From: a virus
DNA length: 64,000 nt
IMG/VR virus record: IMGVR_UViG_3300009082_000017
Location: 32,001-96,000 of that record
Strand: one strand, 5' to 3'
Each line of letters starts with the position of its first letter. Within the stretch, counting starts at the first letter, position 1. The translations under genes and the position numbers were made by a program. This document shows positions 15,107 to 40,783 of the stretch, piece by piece. The notes beneath the pieces are model-generated. The model was not told where the DNA came from and searched no databases. It saw nothing but the letters and a program-made list of their open reading frames with translations.

Positions 15107-16594
15107 ATGACACGACAATATATATCAGATATAATAAATCAAGAAGAAATCTCTAGGTGGTCTCCCAAGGATAGAATATTAATAGACGCTCAAACTGGCT
15201 TTGGTAAATCTCAATTTGTTAAGAACGAATTATATAATTATTGTAAAAAGAATGATAAAAAAATATTACTTCTTTCAAATCGTAATGCTCTAAGAAGTCA
15301 GAATAATGAGGAATTAAAAGAAAATAAATTAGATGTTATTGCTTTAAAAAACTATCAAAATATTGAAGCCATGGTATTGTCAGGATCAGAAATCGCATCT
15401 TTATTTGAACCTTATGATTTTATAATTTTTGACGAATGCCATTATATAACATCTGATAGTAACTTCAGTAATACAACCGACATTCTTTTGTCTCAACTTA
15501 AGAATCCTTTATCAGATAAAATATATATCTTTTTAAGTGCTACGACAGATGCTATTCTAACATATGAAGATACTTTTGATTTTACATATATCATTCCAAA
15601 AGATTATTCCTATATTGAAAATTTATATTTTTATTCTAAAGCAGAAACCCTCAATAATATTTTAGAAAAAATTCCTTATGAAGAGAAAGTTATATATTTT
15701 GGGACAGCCTTAGAATCTTTAGAACTTAGTTTATTGTTTAATGATTCTGCATTCATGTGTTCTGAAAATAATAGAGAATTCTATAGAAAATCATCCAAAA
15801 CTGTAAGTCAAGATATTGGAGAAAATTCATATTTTAAACCAAGAATGTTATTTACAACAAAAGTTATTGACAATGGTGTCAATATTATAGATGCTCAGTT
15901 AAAACATATAATTATTGATTTGTTTGATCCTATAGATGTCATCCAATGCTTGGGGAGAAAGCGTGTCACTGGTGTTAATGATAAAATTAATCTATATATA
16001 AAAAATTATCATGGCGGAGAAATTTATCCAAGGATACAAAGAATAGATGATAAATTAAAACAAGTACAAGAATTGGAAGATTTGGGCAAAGAAGAATTCC
16101 AAAAGAAATATGCTAGATCTGCATTTGATTCTGTTATTAGAAATAACTTTGAAATCAATGAAGCCAAAATGATTTACTATAAATATATTCGATCTATTTC
16201 TTTAGATATGATTTCTAATAAAGATACTGATGGATACAAAAGATTTATATCTAAGAAATTAGAGATTGATTTTGATAATATAAAAATAGCAGAAGAGTAT
16301 TATGAGAAAGAATGTTTGTCTGATATTCTAGAACAATATATAGGTAAGAGAATTTATAAGGGAGAAATTCAAGAAGCATTTAAAGAGAAATTCTTTAATA
16401 AATTATTTGATCCAAAAAGAAGATTGGACTATAGAAGTAGAGGATATAATACTATGAATAATATTTTACAAGATGATAATCTTCCTTATTATATTACCAC
16501 TATTTTAGATAGAGAGGCACATAGTCAACACAAAGGAAAGAAATATTGGATTGTAAATAAATCTATTCCTCCAATAGAGGTAATGGAAGAATAA
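15107..16594 (+). CDS. SF2 (DExH) helicase-like protein
   Basis: AQTGFGKS, DECH, SAT, TKVIDNGVN, QCLGRKR. Confidence 0.85.
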   Translation: MTRQYISDIINQEEISRWSPKDRILIDAQTGFGKSQFVKNELYNYCKKNDKKILLLSNRNALRSQNNEELKENKLDVIALKNYQNIEAMVLSGSEIASLFEPYDFIIFDECHYITSDSNFSNTTDILLSQLKNPLSDKIYIFLSATTDAILTYEDTFDFTYIIPKDYSYIENLYFYSKAETLNNILEKIPYEEKVIYFGTALESLELSLLFNDSAFMCSENNREFYRKSSKTVSQDIGENSYFKPRMLFTTKVIDNGVNIIDAQLKHIIIDLFDPIDVIQCLGRKRVTGVNDKINLYIKNYHGGEIYPRIQRIDDKLKQVQELEDLGKEEFQKKYARSAFDSVIRNNFEINEAKMIYYKYIRSISLDMISNKDTDGYKRFISKKLEIDFDNIKIAEEYYEKECLSDILEQYIGKRIYKGEIQEAFKEKFFNKLFDPKRRLDYRSRGYNTMNNILQDDNLPYYITTILDREAHSQHKGKKYWIVNKSIPPIEVMEE

Positions 16595-35343: not shown

Positions 35344-35544
35344 ATGAGAAGAAGATTGCCCAAAAACACTAAAATTGTTATTAGAAAAACTCAAATTAGG
35401 AGTTCTCAATTATGTCACAAATGTAATTCTAATATTGAAAAATTAAGCGAAGTGATCCTAGTCAGTAATGGTCGTGGTCAAAATAGAAAGTATTATCATC
35501 TTAAGTGTGCAGAATTAGAAGGGATTAAAAATGACAGAGAATGA
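35344..35544 (+). CDS. Small Zn-finger protein
   Basis: CHKC...YHLKC. Confidence 0.6.
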   Translation: MRRRLPKNTKIVIRKTQIRSSQLCHKCNSNIEKLSEVILVSNGRGQNRKYYHLKCAELEGIKNDRE

Positions 35545-35717
35545 AGAAGATAAATTAATGGTGGTATTAGAACATTTTTTATCGTTGCATGAAGCCGATG
35601 AAATTTACAATGCAATATTTGATATAACAGTTGACGAAAAACAGTTGAGTGCGATTCTGGATAGTTATAAAGAACCATGAAATTCTACTTTCATTGGAAA
35701 ACAAAAAGGAGATAATA

Positions 35718-35933
35718 ATGGAACTAAAAATTAACGCTGATAGATGGAATAATCGTGATATGGAAAGCGTAACTGGAATTTATATTCGTGCTATGACCCC
35801 TGACGGAAAATGGGATAACGCCGATCTTGCTCAACTTGATAGGGATTCTATTATTGAGTGGACTAAAACCAGAGAAAATGGCGCATTGAACACTTTACTA
35901 ATTTTGCTCGGATACGATCAAGTAACAAACTAA
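35718..35933 (+). CDS. Hypothetical protein
   Basis: SD AAGGAG; bounded by sites 35676 and 35937. Confidence 0.7.
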   Translation: MELKINADRWNNRDMESVTGIYIRAMTPDGKWDNADLAQLDRDSIIEWTKTRENGALNTLLILLGYDQVTN

Positions 35934-35971
35934 ACCCATGAAATGTAACTTTCATTAGAAAGGAGAATAAA

Positions 35972-36187
35972 ATGAAATTTTTAAACAAATACGAAATAGA
36001 ACACGCTGGCAATTACATTTATTGGAGACCAGATTGGATAAAAGGAAGTCCAGTTTATGTTACTGGTCATCAAGCGAATTTTGATGTGCATTTTGACAAA
36101 AATACTTATCCTACTTTATTAAGAGATGTTCCTGAAGATGCAATATTTATGAGATTACATTCTTCTAATGTTTTCCCTGAACTATAA
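35972..36187 (+). CDS. Hypothetical protein
   Basis: SD AAGGAG. Confidence 0.7.
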   Translation: MKFLNKYEIEHAGNYIYWRPDWIKGSPVYVTGHQANFDVHFDKNTYPTLLRDVPEDAIFMRLHSSNVFPEL

Positions 36188-36205
36188 CAGAAAGGACACT
36201 CAACA

Positions 36206-36430
36206 ATGACCTGCAAACAAAAGAATCTACTCGAACACTACTTTTATCAAATACTCACTCGTCAAGGTATTGCTCCAAAGTTTTCTTTTATCCATAGCAA
36301 ATATAAAGACGATGGTTCAGAACTTATTCAAACCATTGTAACAAAAGATAATAAACCTGTGGCAGTATTTGATAGGGTTTATATTGACTCAAAAGGTTAT
36401 GTGCTTAATTATGAAATGATGTTGGCTTAA
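36206..36430 (+). CDS. Hypothetical protein
   Basis: SD AAGGA. Confidence 0.65.
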   Translation: MTCKQKNLLEHYFYQILTRQGIAPKFSFIHSKYKDDGSELIQTIVTKDNKPVAVFDRVYIDSKGYVLNYEMMLA

Positions 36431-36447
36431 CAGAAAGGACTATAACA

Positions 36448-36816
36448 ATGAAACTCAACATTAACCCTAAAACTAACCCTGATCTCTTAGGTGAAACCCT
36501 ACGTGATGAATTTTTCAAACAAGAACTCAAACATACTAGATATGGTGATTACCGTCAATTAGGGTGCTATGATACATTTGAACTCAAAGACGATGTAACA
36601 CCACTGCCTGACGAGTTGCTAGACGAAGGATATCCTGAAGATGGTTCGTACCATGTATTCAAGAAAGTGGTGAATGGTCAAGAAATTATTATGAAATATT
36701 TTTGGGATGGAGATGGTGAATTGGAGTTTTTCTTCAAAGGTGGTATGATTAGTAATGATGATTGCAAAAAGACTTATGGCTGGACGTTTTATGATGAAAA
36801 GCCGATTGAGTATTAA
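36448..36816 (+). CDS. Hypothetical protein
   Basis: SD AAGGA. Confidence 0.7.
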   Translation: MKLNINPKTNPDLLGETLRDEFFKQELKHTRYGDYRQLGCYDTFELKDDVTPLPDELLDEGYPEDGSYHVFKKVVNGQEIIMKYFWDGDGELEFFFKGGMISNDDCKKTYGWTFYDEKPIEY

Positions 36817-37036
36817 CAGAAAGGGAAAAATAAAATGAGATGTAAACATCCAACCAAAGAAATTTTTAGTAGATGGGTAGATATGAATGGGCGTTCAATC
36901 AACTTCAGCGCCGGTATAGGAGAAGTCAAGAAAGAATATACTTGCCTAGCTTGTGGTAAAGTCGTAAGAAAGCCCAAATCAGAATAACAGTCAACGAAAT
37001 ACCACTTTCATGTGGTTAACAGAAAAGGAGAATAGA

Positions 37037-37192
37037 ATGACAACTTATACAGTTTCGTTTGTAAAAGATGCTTATGTAACAGTAGAAGCAGATAGTGTGG
37101 AAGAGGCGGAAGAATTGGCAACGAAAGAAGTCAATGATCGTGGAGTTGATTGTGAAAGTAAATGGCAATTAGATGAAGTTATTGATGAGTAA
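37037..37192 (+). CDS. Small acidic protein
   Basis: VEADSVEEAEELA motif; bounded by sites 36993 and 37198. Confidence 0.65.
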   Translation: MTTYTVSFVKDAYVTVEADSVEEAEELATKEVNDRGVDCESKWQLDEVIDE

Positions 37193-37219
37193 CACTCAAT
37201 AAAATTTATATTTCATGGT

Positions 37220-37324
37220 GAAGTAAACCCAAACATCTATTATAAATAGATCAGGGTCTAGAGATTGCGATTTACAATCAGTTTGAATAAATTCAAACAA
37301 AGGAGTGAAATTGCTCCAATAAAT
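37220..37324 (+). ncRNA. Orphan omegaRNA-like scaffold, paralogous to the tnpB 3' end
   Basis: Three blocks align with 38493-38607, with compensatory base-pair changes in two hairpins. Confidence 0.6.
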
Positions 37325-37363
37325 TATATCATTCATGGGAAAAATAAAAAGAAAGGAGGTCAA

Positions 37364-38575
37364 TTGATTGTTAATCGCATTGAAAAACATTGCATTAAAA
37401 GGAACACTCCATTATGGAAAGTTATAGATCAAAAATGTTGGGAAGCCAAAAGTTTATATAATTGTGCTAATTATATTATCACACAAGAATTTAAATCTAC
37501 TGGAAAGTGGATTAGATATTATAGTCTTGACAATATGATGCAAAGTACTTTACAATACAAACGATTAGGTTCTCAGGCTGCGCAGAACACATTGGTTTTA
37601 CTTGATAGAGACTGGCGTTCATTTTTTAAAGGAATCAAACAATGGTCTAAAAAGAAAGGAGAAGGATTTTTTGGTAAACCAGAAATGCCTTTCTATAAAA
37701 AGAAAAATGGTAGAAGTGTTTTAATGATAAAAAATATTCAATGTAGAATAGAAGGGAATAAACTTATTTTTTCTTGGCTACCATTAAGAAAATTTAGTGG
37801 TATTCCCACAAAAGCAACAGGAAAATTAATGCAAGTGCGTTTTGTTCCAAAAGGATCATGTTATTATATGGAGATAGTTTATCAAATAAACATTCCTGAC
37901 CAAAAGAAATTTAATAATCGCATTGCAGGAATAGATTTAGGCGTTAATAATTTTGCCACTATTGTAAACAATATCGGTCTTAGACCAATTTTTGTTAAGG
38001 GTAATATTATTAAATCTATGAATCAGTATTATAATAAAGAACGTGCTGAAATATCTAGATCAACTGGAATGGTCTGGAATAATAGAATGAGGAGATTAAC
38101 AGATAAACATTTGAAAAAATTAGATACTTACACCCATACAGTTAGCAAAAGAATTATAGAATATTGTTTAGAAAATAATATAGATACACTTATTGTTGGG
38201 CTTACTAAAGAATGGAAGGATGGAATTAATCTAGGACACGTTAATAATCAAAATTTTGTATGTATTCCTTATGATAAATTTATTCTTCAGTTACAATATA
38301 AATGTGAAAACATTGGAATAAGATTTATTATGAATGAAGAAAACTTTACATCTGGTACAAGTTTTCTTGATAATGAATTACCTATTGAGGAAAACTATAA
38401 TATTAAGCGTAGGATTAAAAGAGGTTTATTTAAATCTAACAATGGCGCAGTTATTAATTCCGATGTTAATGGTGCATATCAAATTGTTAAGAAAGTATAC
38501 CCAAACGCTTTTACAGAAATGTTTAGCAGAGGGATTAGAGGGTGTGATTTACACCCAATTAAGCTAGTAATCTAG
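37364..38575 (+). CDS. tnpB: TnpB RNA-guided endonuclease (IS200/IS605-IS607 superfamily), no tnpA nearby
   Basis: N-terminal AKSLYNCANY, RuvC-I GIDLGVNN, LIVG (G at the usual RuvC-II E) with downstream EENFTS, RuvC-III INSDVNGAYQI. SD AAAGGAGG before TTG 37364 or ATT 37367. Confidence 0.9.
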   Translation: MIVNRIEKHCIKRNTPLWKVIDQKCWEAKSLYNCANYIITQEFKSTGKWIRYYSLDNMMQSTLQYKRLGSQAAQNTLVLLDRDWRSFFKGIKQWSKKKGEGFFGKPEMPFYKKKNGRSVLMIKNIQCRIEGNKLIFSWLPLRKFSGIPTKATGKLMQVRFVPKGSCYYMEIVYQINIPDQKKFNNRIAGIDLGVNNFATIVNNIGLRPIFVKGNIIKSMNQYYNKERAEISRSTGMVWNNRMRRLTDKHLKKLDTYTHTVSKRIIEYCLENNIDTLIVGLTKEWKDGINLGHVNNQNFVCIPYDKFILQLQYKCENIGIRFIMNEENFTSGTSFLDNELPIEENYNIKRRIKRGLFKSNNGAVINSDVNGAYQIVKKVYPNAFTEMFSRGIRGCDLHPIKLVI

Positions 38576-38607
38576 ATAATAAAGAAGTGATTTTTTGCTT
38601 CGTAAAT
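38493..38607 (+). ncRNA. Predicted omegaRNA scaffold overlapping the tnpB 3' end
   Basis: Usual position for TnpB omegaRNA; hairpins GGGTGT/ACACCC, CTAG/CTAG, GAAG/CTTC. The 5' limit given is only the start of the homology block. Confidence 0.55.
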
Positions 38608-38664
38608 TCTTCGTTTTATGAAAAATAATAAAAAGGAAATAATTATGAAAGCTATATTAACCTT

Positions 38665-39072
38665 ATGAATGACCTTACAAGATATGTAAACATAAACGAT
38701 ACCTATATCCATTGCGCCAAATACCTATCCCCACAAACAACCCTGGTATGGTTATGTTTGAATACCTATTGGTTCAATAAGAAGGATAAGGGTGAACGCA
38801 TCAATGATTATGTCAAACCGTCTATAAACAGCATTGTAGCCGGTACTGGGCTATCTAAAAACACTATCAGGAAGTGTATCAAAGAATTAAATATATTAGG
38901 GTTTATCTCTAAAATTGAAAAAATATATGATAAAGAGACTGGAATGAATAGATCAAATCTTTATTATATGGACGAAAACCCTGAAAACCTTATTGAAAAC
39001 ATGGTAAAATTGAAGGAATTTAGAAGTGTAAAACGGTCAAAAGATACAATAAGTGAGGATGGATTTGACTAA
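38665..39072 (+). CDS. Winged-HTH protein (HTH_36/replication-initiator-like N-terminus)
   Basis: PSINSIVAGTGLSKNTIRKCIKELNILGFI...NRSNLYY. Confidence 0.75.
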   Translation: MNDLTRYVNINDTYIHCAKYLSPQTTLVWLCLNTYWFNKKDKGERINDYVKPSINSIVAGTGLSKNTIRKCIKELNILGFISKIEKIYDKETGMNRSNLYYMDENPENLIENMVKLKEFRSVKRSKDTISEDGFD

Positions 39073-39082
39073 AAAATCTTGT

Positions 39083-39142
39083 CTAAACTCACTATTTGAC
39101 CCACCTAGTTCAAATAGTGAGTTTAGGTAGTTCAAATAGTGA
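39083..39142. repeat. 17-bp inverted repeat plus 15-bp direct repeat (iteron-like)
   Basis: CTAAACTCACTATTTGA/TCAAATAGTGAGTTTAG; TAGTTCAAATAGTGA at 39106 and 39128. Confidence 0.75.
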
Positions 39143-39232
39143 AGGAGGGGTGGTTCACGGTTTGAACCCGAATAATTACTAAGTATTAATAACTACTAAG
39201 TAGTTAAATAAATACTAATAAATAATCAATCA

Positions 39233-39271
39233 AAATCAAAAAGGCAAAAACCAAGAGCGCCTTTTTGATTT
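39233..39271. terminator. 13-bp hairpin
   Basis: AAATCAAAAAGGC-aaaaaccaagagc-GCCTTTTTGATTT. Confidence 0.55.
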
Positions 39272-39440
39272 ATGAACACAAATTTTTAATGCTTTTAATT
39301 TAAAGGAGTAAACAGTTTACAACCATGAAACTATTGTTTCATTGAAAATAATTTTAGATTAATTTAAGGTAATGTTCTATTGTAATTAAAAAATTAGGAC
39401 TGTATACTATTAGTATAAATAAATAAGAAAGGAATAAAAA

Positions 39441-40022
39441 ATGATAACTCATGAAAAATATGGTCAATGTACACAGTCCTTTAATCCTTGGCGTGACGCT
39501 ATTGAAAGAAAAGATTTTCTAAATAGATCATGCGGAGAATCAAAAATTACAGACAATGAAGATGGGTCTTATACGGTTGTAAGTGATAGTTACTGGAGTA
39601 CCTTTACTTATTTGCCTAATAACTGGGAGGAACCTTTACAATTTATTGATCCTCAGATTTTTCCATGTATTCAAAAATGTTCAATCCAAATAACAAAATG
39701 GCCTTGGGATGAAGTTGAAGATTACTTCCCACCAAAATTTTATAACAGAAATTTTTACACCGTTTCTATAAAATTATATGATGGTTATGATGAAAAAGGC
39801 AATCCTGAAAATTTGTCTGAATTTGACAATTATTTCTATCCAGAGTATATTTCTAATTTTGATATGTCTGTTTACAAAGAATTTGGATTTTGTACCGACA
39901 AAGACGATCATGATTTTGGAACTTTCAATAAACAATTTGCTATAAAATTAGCAAAGTATGTAAAAACAGAATTAGAAAAATCAGGATTTATTGTTTTTAA
40001 AACCGAACTTCATGAAGCTTAA
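39441..40022 (+). CDS. Hypothetical protein
   Basis: SD; bounded by sites 39324 and 40029. Confidence 0.75.
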   Translation: MITHEKYGQCTQSFNPWRDAIERKDFLNRSCGESKITDNEDGSYTVVSDSYWSTFTYLPNNWEEPLQFIDPQIFPCIQKCSIQITKWPWDEVEDYFPPKFYNRNFYTVSIKLYDGYDEKGNPENLSEFDNYFYPEYISNFDMSVYKEFGFCTDKDDHDFGTFNKQFAIKLAKYVKTELEKSGFIVFKTELHEA

Positions 40023-40069
40023 TTCACCCATGAAAGTTCTATTTCATGGTGTTATAAGAAAGGATTAAA

Positions 40070-40324
40070 ATGAAAATCTTAAAAATTCAAGATATTACAC
40101 CCTTTCGTGGTAAAGAACCTAATGATATGGATTTATTAAATTGTTTGGTAGAATATAACGATGGAGTTACTGGAAATTCATATATGTATCGTGCTAAATA
40201 CGATAAACTTATTTTTCAAGCAGACCTAATTAAAAAATATAATATCACGGAATATGAATTAAATGTGTTTACAGATTTGATCAGAGATGAAATTGATACT
40301 GAACATTTTTATAATGAAACTTAA
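40070..40324 (+). CDS. Hypothetical protein
   Basis: SD AAGGA. Confidence 0.7.
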   Translation: MKILKIQDITPFRGKEPNDMDLLNCLVEYNDGVTGNSYMYRAKYDKLIFQADLIKKYNITEYELNVFTDLIRDEIDTEHFYNET

Positions 40325-40339
40325 AGAATAGGAGAAAAA

Positions 40340-40741
40340 ATGAAAGGTAAAATTACTATTTCAAAAACTTATGGCAATTATGACAATCCAAGGCCAGTTC
40401 GTATTACTATTACAGACACAGATGCCAATATTGATTTTGCTGAAATTAATTTAAGTCTGGAAGAAATTGCCGAAGCATTACTTGGATTGGCTCATGTGGA
40501 ATGTGAAATAACAACACATGATTTAAAAAACGTTGGAAAAACAAGGGAAATGGATACATTAATTGTAAAGTTCCCTGAAGAAATTAACTATCCTACCAAA
40601 CAAGATGCTCATGACTTTGCAATTCAACAAATGCCTGAAACTTGGGAATTACGAGACAGTTTTACTTCGCAAAAATCTTTCTTTGAAGAAAATGGTAAAA
40701 AATATGCAAGAGCCAATATTATAAGATGGGTAGAAAAATAG
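40340..40741 (+). CDS. Hypothetical protein
   Basis: SD AGGAG. Confidence 0.75.
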   Translation: MKGKITISKTYGNYDNPRPVRITITDTDANIDFAEINLSLEEIAEALLGLAHVECEITTHDLKNVGKTREMDTLIVKFPEEINYPTKQDAHDFAIQQMPETWELRDSFTSQKSFFEENGKKYARANIIRWVEK

Positions 40742-40783
40742 TACCCATGAATTTACCGTTTCATTAGAAAAGGAGAAAAAGAT

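Follow-up and report, generated by a model that had tools for sequence, protein, structure and literature searches.

A gene-less omegaRNA scaffold upstream of a phage tnpB gene and its possible role as a second guide RNA

Just upstream of a tnpB gene in a phage genome lies a short stretch of DNA that resembles the omegaRNA scaffold encoded at the 3' end of that gene. The question raised by this locus is whether the stretch, here called the module, is maintained as an RNA that can give TnpB a second guide or is the residue of a gene that has been lost. The window, that is the whole stretch of 64,000 nucleotides that was analyzed, comprises bases 32001-96000 of a 160,042-bp IMG/VR phage record (32% G+C). 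The genes near the module are short, tightly packed and all located on the plus strand, which is also the strand of the module. It is flanked by an upstream 60-codon gene and by tnpB, and it fills the space between two palindromic junction sites. The features of the locus, in window coordinates, are as follows.

37199..37216: palindromic junction site 1 (6-6-6, core TTTATA), the left border of the module's slot
37221..37324, + strand: gene-less omegaRNA scaffold (module M), 104 bases; covariance-model match at 37221-37317
37319..37336: site 2 (core TATATC); its left arm ATAAAT lies in the scaffold, and its core and right arm start the predicted guide
37325..37344, + strand: predicted guide of the module, probably 16-20 nt long by analogy with characterised TnpB guides
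37364..38575, + strand: tnpB, 403 aa, TTG start, with GGAGG at 37355-37359
38493..38607, + strand: cognate omegaRNA scaffold, overlapping the 3' end of tnpB and ending in GTAAAT; covariance-model match at 38493-38601, 82.5 bits
38602-38619: site 3 (core TCTTCG), after tnpB
38608..38627, + strand: predicted guide of the cognate omegaRNA, from the core TCTTCG of site 3 onward

The likeness between the module and the scaffold is far beyond chance. The segments matched in a first-pass annotation of this DNA agree at 13 of 14 positions (37221-37234 against 38493-38506) and at 23 of 31 positions (37253-37283 against 38530-38560). Both paired replacements that it described are present, with GATTG/CAATC (37263-37267 / 37275-37279) in place of GGGTG/CACCC and GGAG/CTCC (37302-37305 / 37314-37317) in place of GAAG/CTTC. 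The extra hairpins that it attributed to the module were located at 37235-37251 and 37281-37298, and the position between two palindromic sites was as described. Only two matches of at least 13/14 to the 14-mer at 37221-37234 exist in the whole 160-kb genome when both strands are counted.

A covariance model was built from ten tnpB-linked copies of other phages, leaving out the module and this phage's own two copies. The model matched the module with 64.6 bits (E 3e-13) over model positions 1-105 of 105, a score higher than those of six true gene-linked copies that were likewise outside the training set. Exactly three places were found in the genome, namely the cognate scaffold, the module and the scaffold of a second tnpB gene (38.2 bits), while the next match in the window reached 14.9 bits (E 0.14). 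An Rfam search of 36500-39500 at permissive thresholds returned chance-level matches only and no omegaRNA family. The covariance-model match, the helix pairing and the module's own fold bear out the earlier reading of the module as a second omegaRNA scaffold, and we regard its homology and structure as near certain. It is a solo copy because it does not overlap the 3' end of an intact tnpB frame; there is no tnpB sequence upstream of it.

Two tnpB genes in the same genome could supply an effector. The adjacent TnpB matches the Pfam families OrfB_IS605 (PF01385) and Cas12f1-like TNB (PF07282), both above the cut-offs, and the NCBIfam model guided_TnpB (NF040570) with 156 bits (cut-off 100) over residues 11-377, as befits a full-length TnpB. 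Its N-terminal half, with the first RuvC aspartate in GIDLG, aligns with ISDra2 TnpB (E 4e-5); for the second and third residues of the RuvC site the assignment is from the motif only. The second gene (97399-98598 of the record, or with its scaffold to 98622; contig L010 1501-2724) is also intact and full-length and is 63% identical to the adjacent copy. It is found about 28 kb downstream, 1.4 kb past the end of the window, and is followed by its own scaffold and then by a site with the core TGATAC, for which no counterpart was found in G001, a 143-kb relative (IMGVR_UViG_3300029288_000086). The start of the adjacent tnpB was placed at 37364 because the homologues fetched with their DNA and the ribosome-binding site put it there. 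Public gene calls lengthen this gene to 430 or 436 aa by running through the module (37265-37363), where the frame is open by chance.

The scaffold family was represented by 24 tnpB-linked 3' ends, which include the two copies of this phage, that of an IMG/VR relative, those of homologue contigs and those from a metagenome scan with the helix-1 core as its pattern; the contigs encode TnpB homologues of 62-90% identity. One further copy of the IS607 type was collected from Geobacillus stearothermophilus, and the phage TnpB family is IS607-related. All copies have the same architecture, with an outer stem around a small hairpin, helices 1 to 3 and a terminal hexamer ATRAAT. Helix 1 carries a nearly invariant 7-base loop, and helices 2 and 3 vary in sequence between copies. 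In an alignment of 20 sequences, 87.8% of the cells were paired against about 44% in slid controls, and 23 of the 32 pairs were changed on both sides, values that 0 of 500 shuffles reached. Fitting the alignment to the model makes it lean towards pairing, and the slid controls and per-helix counts still favour structure. The claim that pairing is preserved by compensatory changes thus holds in the larger alignment. The corresponding elements of the module, all on the plus strand, are listed below.

37224-37230 / 37254-37260: outer stem, enclosing the hairpin 37235-37251
37263-37279: helix 1
37281-37298: helix 2
37302-37317: helix 3
37319-37324: 3' tail ATAAAT; its bases 37320-37324 are able to pair with 37270-37274 in the loop of helix 1

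Standard pairs occur at 28 of the 30 aligned model pairs of the module, within the range of 21 to 30 seen in gene-linked members. Its minimum-energy fold reproduces the family architecture with all helices (z -3.52; 0 of 200 shuffles were as stable). Between the module and its nearest relatives, 17-21 of 54-60 paired positions are different. When as many substitutions are placed at random in these relatives, about 15 pairs remain, and a value of 28 was reached in 0 of 20000 trials. This test is by itself blind to the timing of compensation. The module also retains the single-stranded motifs, namely TAGAG, the loop of helix 1, CAGTT and CAAAG. In comparison with the gene-linked copies, its unpaired columns show 62-76% identity and its paired columns 45-69%, and the conservation of the module tracks RNA pairing rather than codons.

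Where the scaffold ends and the guide begins can be placed from the terminal hexamer. ATRAAT is an altered left arm of the junction palindrome that ends all 24 gene-linked copies as well as the module; other sites mostly have ATGAAA or ATAAAA as the left arm. The final five bases of the helix-1 loop and bases 2-6 of the tail are able to pair in 100 of 100 cells (20 copies) and at five of five positions in the module. A compensatory change of loop and tail was found in L020 (AUUCA with UGAAU), and the Geobacillus copy, inspected by eye, has both sides changed (UGUUA with UAACA). These sequences point to a putative pseudoknot between the scaffold tail and the helix-1 loop. The hexamer was therefore counted as scaffold, which puts the guide start at the 6-base core and agrees with the previously proposed start at 37325.

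About 65 palindromic 6-6-6 sites (ATGAAA, a 6-base core, TTTCAT) occur at gene junctions throughout the genome, those of the window between 3990 and 63920, often with C-rich and G-rich flanks. This phage and G001 have 45 site cores in common. Their order is the same in both phages, although the intervening genes are often different, so that the cores act as conserved slot labels. Circle integration, in which each tnpB cassette would be bordered by two sites of the same core, was tried as an explanation and holds only in L129 (JGI 3300037067 contig Ga0378408_0008113) and not at the other loci. The phage has two tyrosine recombinase genes (PF00589), at 126034-126522 (+) and 15981-16529 (-) of the record with 76 and 55 bits, and these recombinases are candidates to act on the palindromic sites.

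The module has not been constrained as a coding sequence for some time. Read in the tnpB frame it contains one stop and one frameshift, and a conserved Ala-Phe is replaced. The second pair of helix 1 is A-U in the module, which converts the proline of the ..LHP motif, invariant in 120 of 120 TnpB homologues, to serine. This compensatory pair must have arisen without coding constraint since it destroys an invariant residue. The inner hairpin has also been swapped for an unrelated perfect hairpin. Taken with the stop and the frameshift, these changes indicate that part of the compensation postdates the death of the gene, the evidence for this timing being one base pair and the replaced hairpin. 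The 5' end of the module lies within about 3 nt of the onset of synonymous-site constraint in tnpB genes. In 17 tnpB genes, 4- and 6-fold codons vary freely upstream of a Lys-Val (AAA GTA, 17/17), and from there onward several such codons are fixed (GTA 17/17, AGA 16/16 and TTA 16/16). Selection on the RNA has probably maintained the fold since the loss of the gene. The first-pass annotation had set selection on RNA structure against a decaying tnpB fragment; at least part of the compensation did follow the loss of the frame, but the origin of the module is indeed a 3' fragment of tnpB, and shorter scars of this kind are present in a relative.

Among the 25 family members obtained from IMG/VR and metagenome pattern scans, with about 1 Mb searched by the model, the module is the only gene-less copy, and there is consequently no set of orthologous solo copies in which purifying selection could be seen. 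The closest tnpB orthologue, in L129 (at least 90% amino-acid and 84% nucleotide identity), lacks the module and has an ordinary gene upstream of the same-core site instead. Downstream of this tnpB (L129 3735-3796), two sites lie 26 nt apart, and the stretch between them resembles the last hairpin of an L022-type scaffold, which suggests that this helix-3-like remnant is a scar left by an older cassette. At window 40718-40764 a 133-codon gene ends in a GGGTA..TACCC hairpin that leads into a site whose left arm, ATGAAT, is rare and whose counterpart in G001 has ATGAAA; 40718-40747 is possibly another scaffold scar, although here the evidence is weak. Such scars show that relics do remain after cassette turnover. 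The junction of module, site and tnpB is present in a second sample, since a landfill metagenome of another study yielded a 307-nt contig that matches 37269-37575 at 94% identity. Among the sequencing runs listed as containing this DNA there is no RNA run, and the DNA run that matches best is probably the source sample. Scans of protein patterns for relatives of tnpB gave one locus in IMG/VR and none in species genomes. Megablast of 35500-40500 gave no match among GenBank phages, and a neighbour-gene scan gave no relative of the 135-aa neighbour gene in IMG/VR. An 80.7-kb contig of another JGI data set (JGI 3300027792 contig Ga0209287_10000038) is 100% identical to the window over 6.2 kb, from which we conclude that the phage was assembled more than once.

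The interpretation to which we give moderate credence is that the module is a stand-alone omegaRNA gene, kept for its RNA fold, that would provide TnpB with a second guide in trans. It competes with the possibility, which we hold to be real though rather unlikely, that the module is a non-functional relic of an older tnpB cassette whose frame was deleted by turnover at the junction sites, so that the fold records a functional past. A relic would be in keeping with the status of the module as the sole solo copy among 25, with the absence of a module from the nearest tnpB orthologue, and with the 26-nt remnant in L129 and the possible scar at 40718-40747. Most of the compensatory differences could also predate the detachment of the module from a working, unsampled tnpB lineage. 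Against this, the frame is long dead, with a stop, a frameshift and invariant residues lost, yet the module still has 28 of 30 pairs and every conserved loop, where random decay of equal extent leaves about 15 pairs. The 5' end coincides with the start of the RNA-constrained stretch and not with an arbitrary point of a 1.2-kb gene, and the A-U pair of helix 1 is incompatible with the invariant proline.

The position of the module before tnpB allows for other roles, each of them clearly less probable. A cis-acting regulator in the 5' leader of tnpB, in the form of a TnpB binding or processing site that feeds back on translation or messenger stability and is a decoy rather than a DNA-targeting guide, would suit an element that ends 40 nt before the tnpB start with its predicted guide stopping about 10 nt before the ribosome-binding site. 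Processing of its own messenger into omegaRNA has been reported for TnpB (PMC10278001). The 24 other tnpB genes in the family all lack such a leader element, which is thus not family-wide, and the junction of tail and site obeys the same rule as that of true guides; we therefore find a regulatory role improbable. It is very doubtful that the module is a transposon left end, similar to the tnpB 3' region in the way that the left and right ends recognised by TnpA usually resemble each other. IS200/IS605 and IS607 ends do have common subterminal sequences (Meers et al., PMC10055086), and the Geobacillus relative sits behind a gene whose end resembles, by eye, an IS607-type serine recombinase. This reading is contradicted by a likeness that is not confined to a short hairpin but extends, with the order preserved, over the entire scaffold of about 100 nt, and by the absence of an upstream copy in all other family members, several of whose tnpB genes start 4-10 nt after the previous gene. 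It is also contradicted by the lack of a TnpA, as neither the serine recombinase (PF00239) nor the Y1 transposase (PF01797) has a match in the 160-kb genome. Least probable of all, to the point of being ruled out, is that the module codes for protein, either as the N-terminal extension of TnpB in the calls of 430 and 436 aa or as an opposite-strand frame of 64 codons (37196-37390). The frame from a TTG at 37265 is open into tnpB, which would explain these calls, but the homologues begin at the aligned MI(V/I)NR position (MIVNR here) or within a few residues of it, behind ribosome-binding sites of their own. Neither extra frame has a Pfam match, and the conservation is led by pairing and not by codons.

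If the module is a stand-alone omegaRNA gene, it would descend from the 3' end of a tnpB cassette after the loss of the reading frame. It would most likely be transcribed into the tnpB messenger, because it lies on the same strand and a promoter and terminator scan found no terminator-like site between the two; promoter-like sites for a module-specific promoter were not above those in shuffles. The adjacent TnpB, or the second copy, may bind the module scaffold as it does its own and form a second ribonucleoprotein, with a predicted guide that starts at 37325 and consists of the core and right arm of site 2. The cognate omegaRNA would guide TnpB to site 3, and the two guides would thus address both borders of the tnpB slot. 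The targets would be the corresponding sites of related phages without the scaffold, which have the left arm ATGAAA, a candidate TAM, whereas the phage's own copies with ATRAAT would be spared. Cleavage followed by recombinational repair could then copy the module and tnpB into a rival genome, as in homing.

The relative G001 offers the empty counterparts of these sites. A covariance-model search found no tnpB-type scaffold in it, and the cores TTTATA, TATATC and TCTTCG follow one another in this order in both genomes, at the following positions of G001.

132314: counterpart of site 1 (core TTTATA), with a ribosome-binding site and gene directly after
132540: counterpart of site 2, left arm ATGAAA, same core TATATC
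133513: counterpart of site 3, ATGAAA with the same core TCTTCG

The position of the module is occupied in G001 by a 60-codon gene, and at both borders of the tnpB slot the left arm of the site is the ordinary ATGAAA. Of the first 12 positions of the module guide, 11 agree with its site in G001, as do 14 of 16 overall; for the cognate guide and its own site the counts are 11 of the first 12 and 13 of 16 overall. The ten cores that follow scaffolds have 13 scaffold-free counterparts at other places or in other phages, and arm position 6 is A in every one of them; an apparent exception with T at this position is the site after the helix-3 remnant in L129, a scar. From this comparison of occupied and empty sites we infer that ATGAAA is a candidate TAM and that ATRAAT may give self-protection. 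No exact copies of the two site-plus-guide sequences were found in IMG/VR. The module 20-mer guide had two matches in 185,579 species genomes, both without site context and about the number expected by chance, and the species genomes thus gave no evidence of a host target. The position of tnpB itself is taken in G001 by a 313-aa gene (L124 4419-5360; contig 132557-133498, between the cores TATATC and TCTTCG). By eye, and by analogy with the PF00145 genes next to the tnpB genes of L020 and L022, it reads like a C5 DNA methyltransferase. We put forward only tentatively, as the less probable outcome, that the two guides form a set that brackets the tnpB slot, such that TnpB would cut on both sides of the methyltransferase gene resident in G001 and repair would install the module together with tnpB.

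The first-pass annotation had called this arrangement a minimal two-guide array. Two scaffold units are indeed present, but the term overstates their relation, as they are about 70% alike and have tnpB between them. A CRISPR-like array was likewise considered and set aside: there are only two units of about 70% identity placed 1.27 kb apart, and not tandem near-identical repeats with fixed spacers.

Stand-alone omegaRNAs are already known, and the module is a phage variant of them rather than a new kind of element. They are reported to act in trans with compatible effectors and to add targets without duplication of the whole system (Altae-Tran et al. 2021, summarised in PMC10691335). The module is like those of OMEGA systems in having a scaffold with its own guide and an effector gene elsewhere in the genome. 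It differs in that they are known from bacteria while the module resides in a phage, directly upstream of the effector and on the same strand. It is also bounded by junction palindromes and not by transposon ends, occurs as one copy, and has a predicted function. PATE-like derivatives of IS200/IS605 elements, which lack genes and encode omegaRNAs (Meers et al., PMC10055086), resemble it as protein-less descendants of tnpB elements that keep the right-end RNA and need TnpB in trans. However, PATEs retain left and right ends and are moved by Y1 TnpA, whereas the module has no left end and the phage has neither type of TnpA.

In CboIStron, an IS607-family element of Clostridium botulinum, the scaffold end TCGG and the TAM TGGG are one position apart (bioRxiv 10.1101/2023.11.20.567912). 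The phage tail ATRAAT similarly resembles the ordinary arm ATGAAA and differs from it at the last position, and the TnpB clade has relatives with a serine recombinase (the Geobacillus copy). Unlike in CboIStron, the phage motif is A/T-rich and not G-rich, with no recombinase partner and no intron, and the TAM is a candidate one. The ISDra2 TnpB-omegaRNA complex (PDB 8exa, 8h1j) is comparable in that the scaffold overlaps the 3' end of tnpB with the guide directly after it; the protein sequences are distant, and the phage scaffold architecture derives from covariation and was not mapped to the solved RNA. The free-standing homing endonuclease genes of T-even phages (PMC13565253) are also nuclease genes wedged between conserved phage genes, and the phage tnpB would spread like them to co-infecting relatives by cleavage and repair. 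In contrast to them, recognition by the phage TnpB would be RNA-guided and directed at spacer-coded palindromic sites, with homing being a prediction here.

The argument that selection continued after the gene was lost is unusually clean for one locus, as it combines a dead frame, an intact fold, a meaningful 5' end and a pair that breaks the proline. The boundary between guide and scaffold is placed for the whole clade, which yields a concrete candidate for TAM and self-protection, ATGAAA against ATRAAT. The locus connects a TnpB that has no transposase with the conserved palindromic sites by which these phage genomes are divided into exchangeable cassettes, and it bears on the spread of TnpB in phages and on the possible beginnings of multi-guide systems. 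If the proposed function is true, this TnpB family would ride a genome-wide system of spacer-coded palindromic slots, and solo scaffolds would be a natural stage in the development of a transposon nuclease with one guide into a multi-guide system. In four other contigs of the family the tnpB gene begins 4-13 nt after the previous gene, with no site or left end between them (L014 2990-3003, L017 849-853, L019 482-489 and L021 2488-2501), and these genes behave as ordinary phage cassettes.
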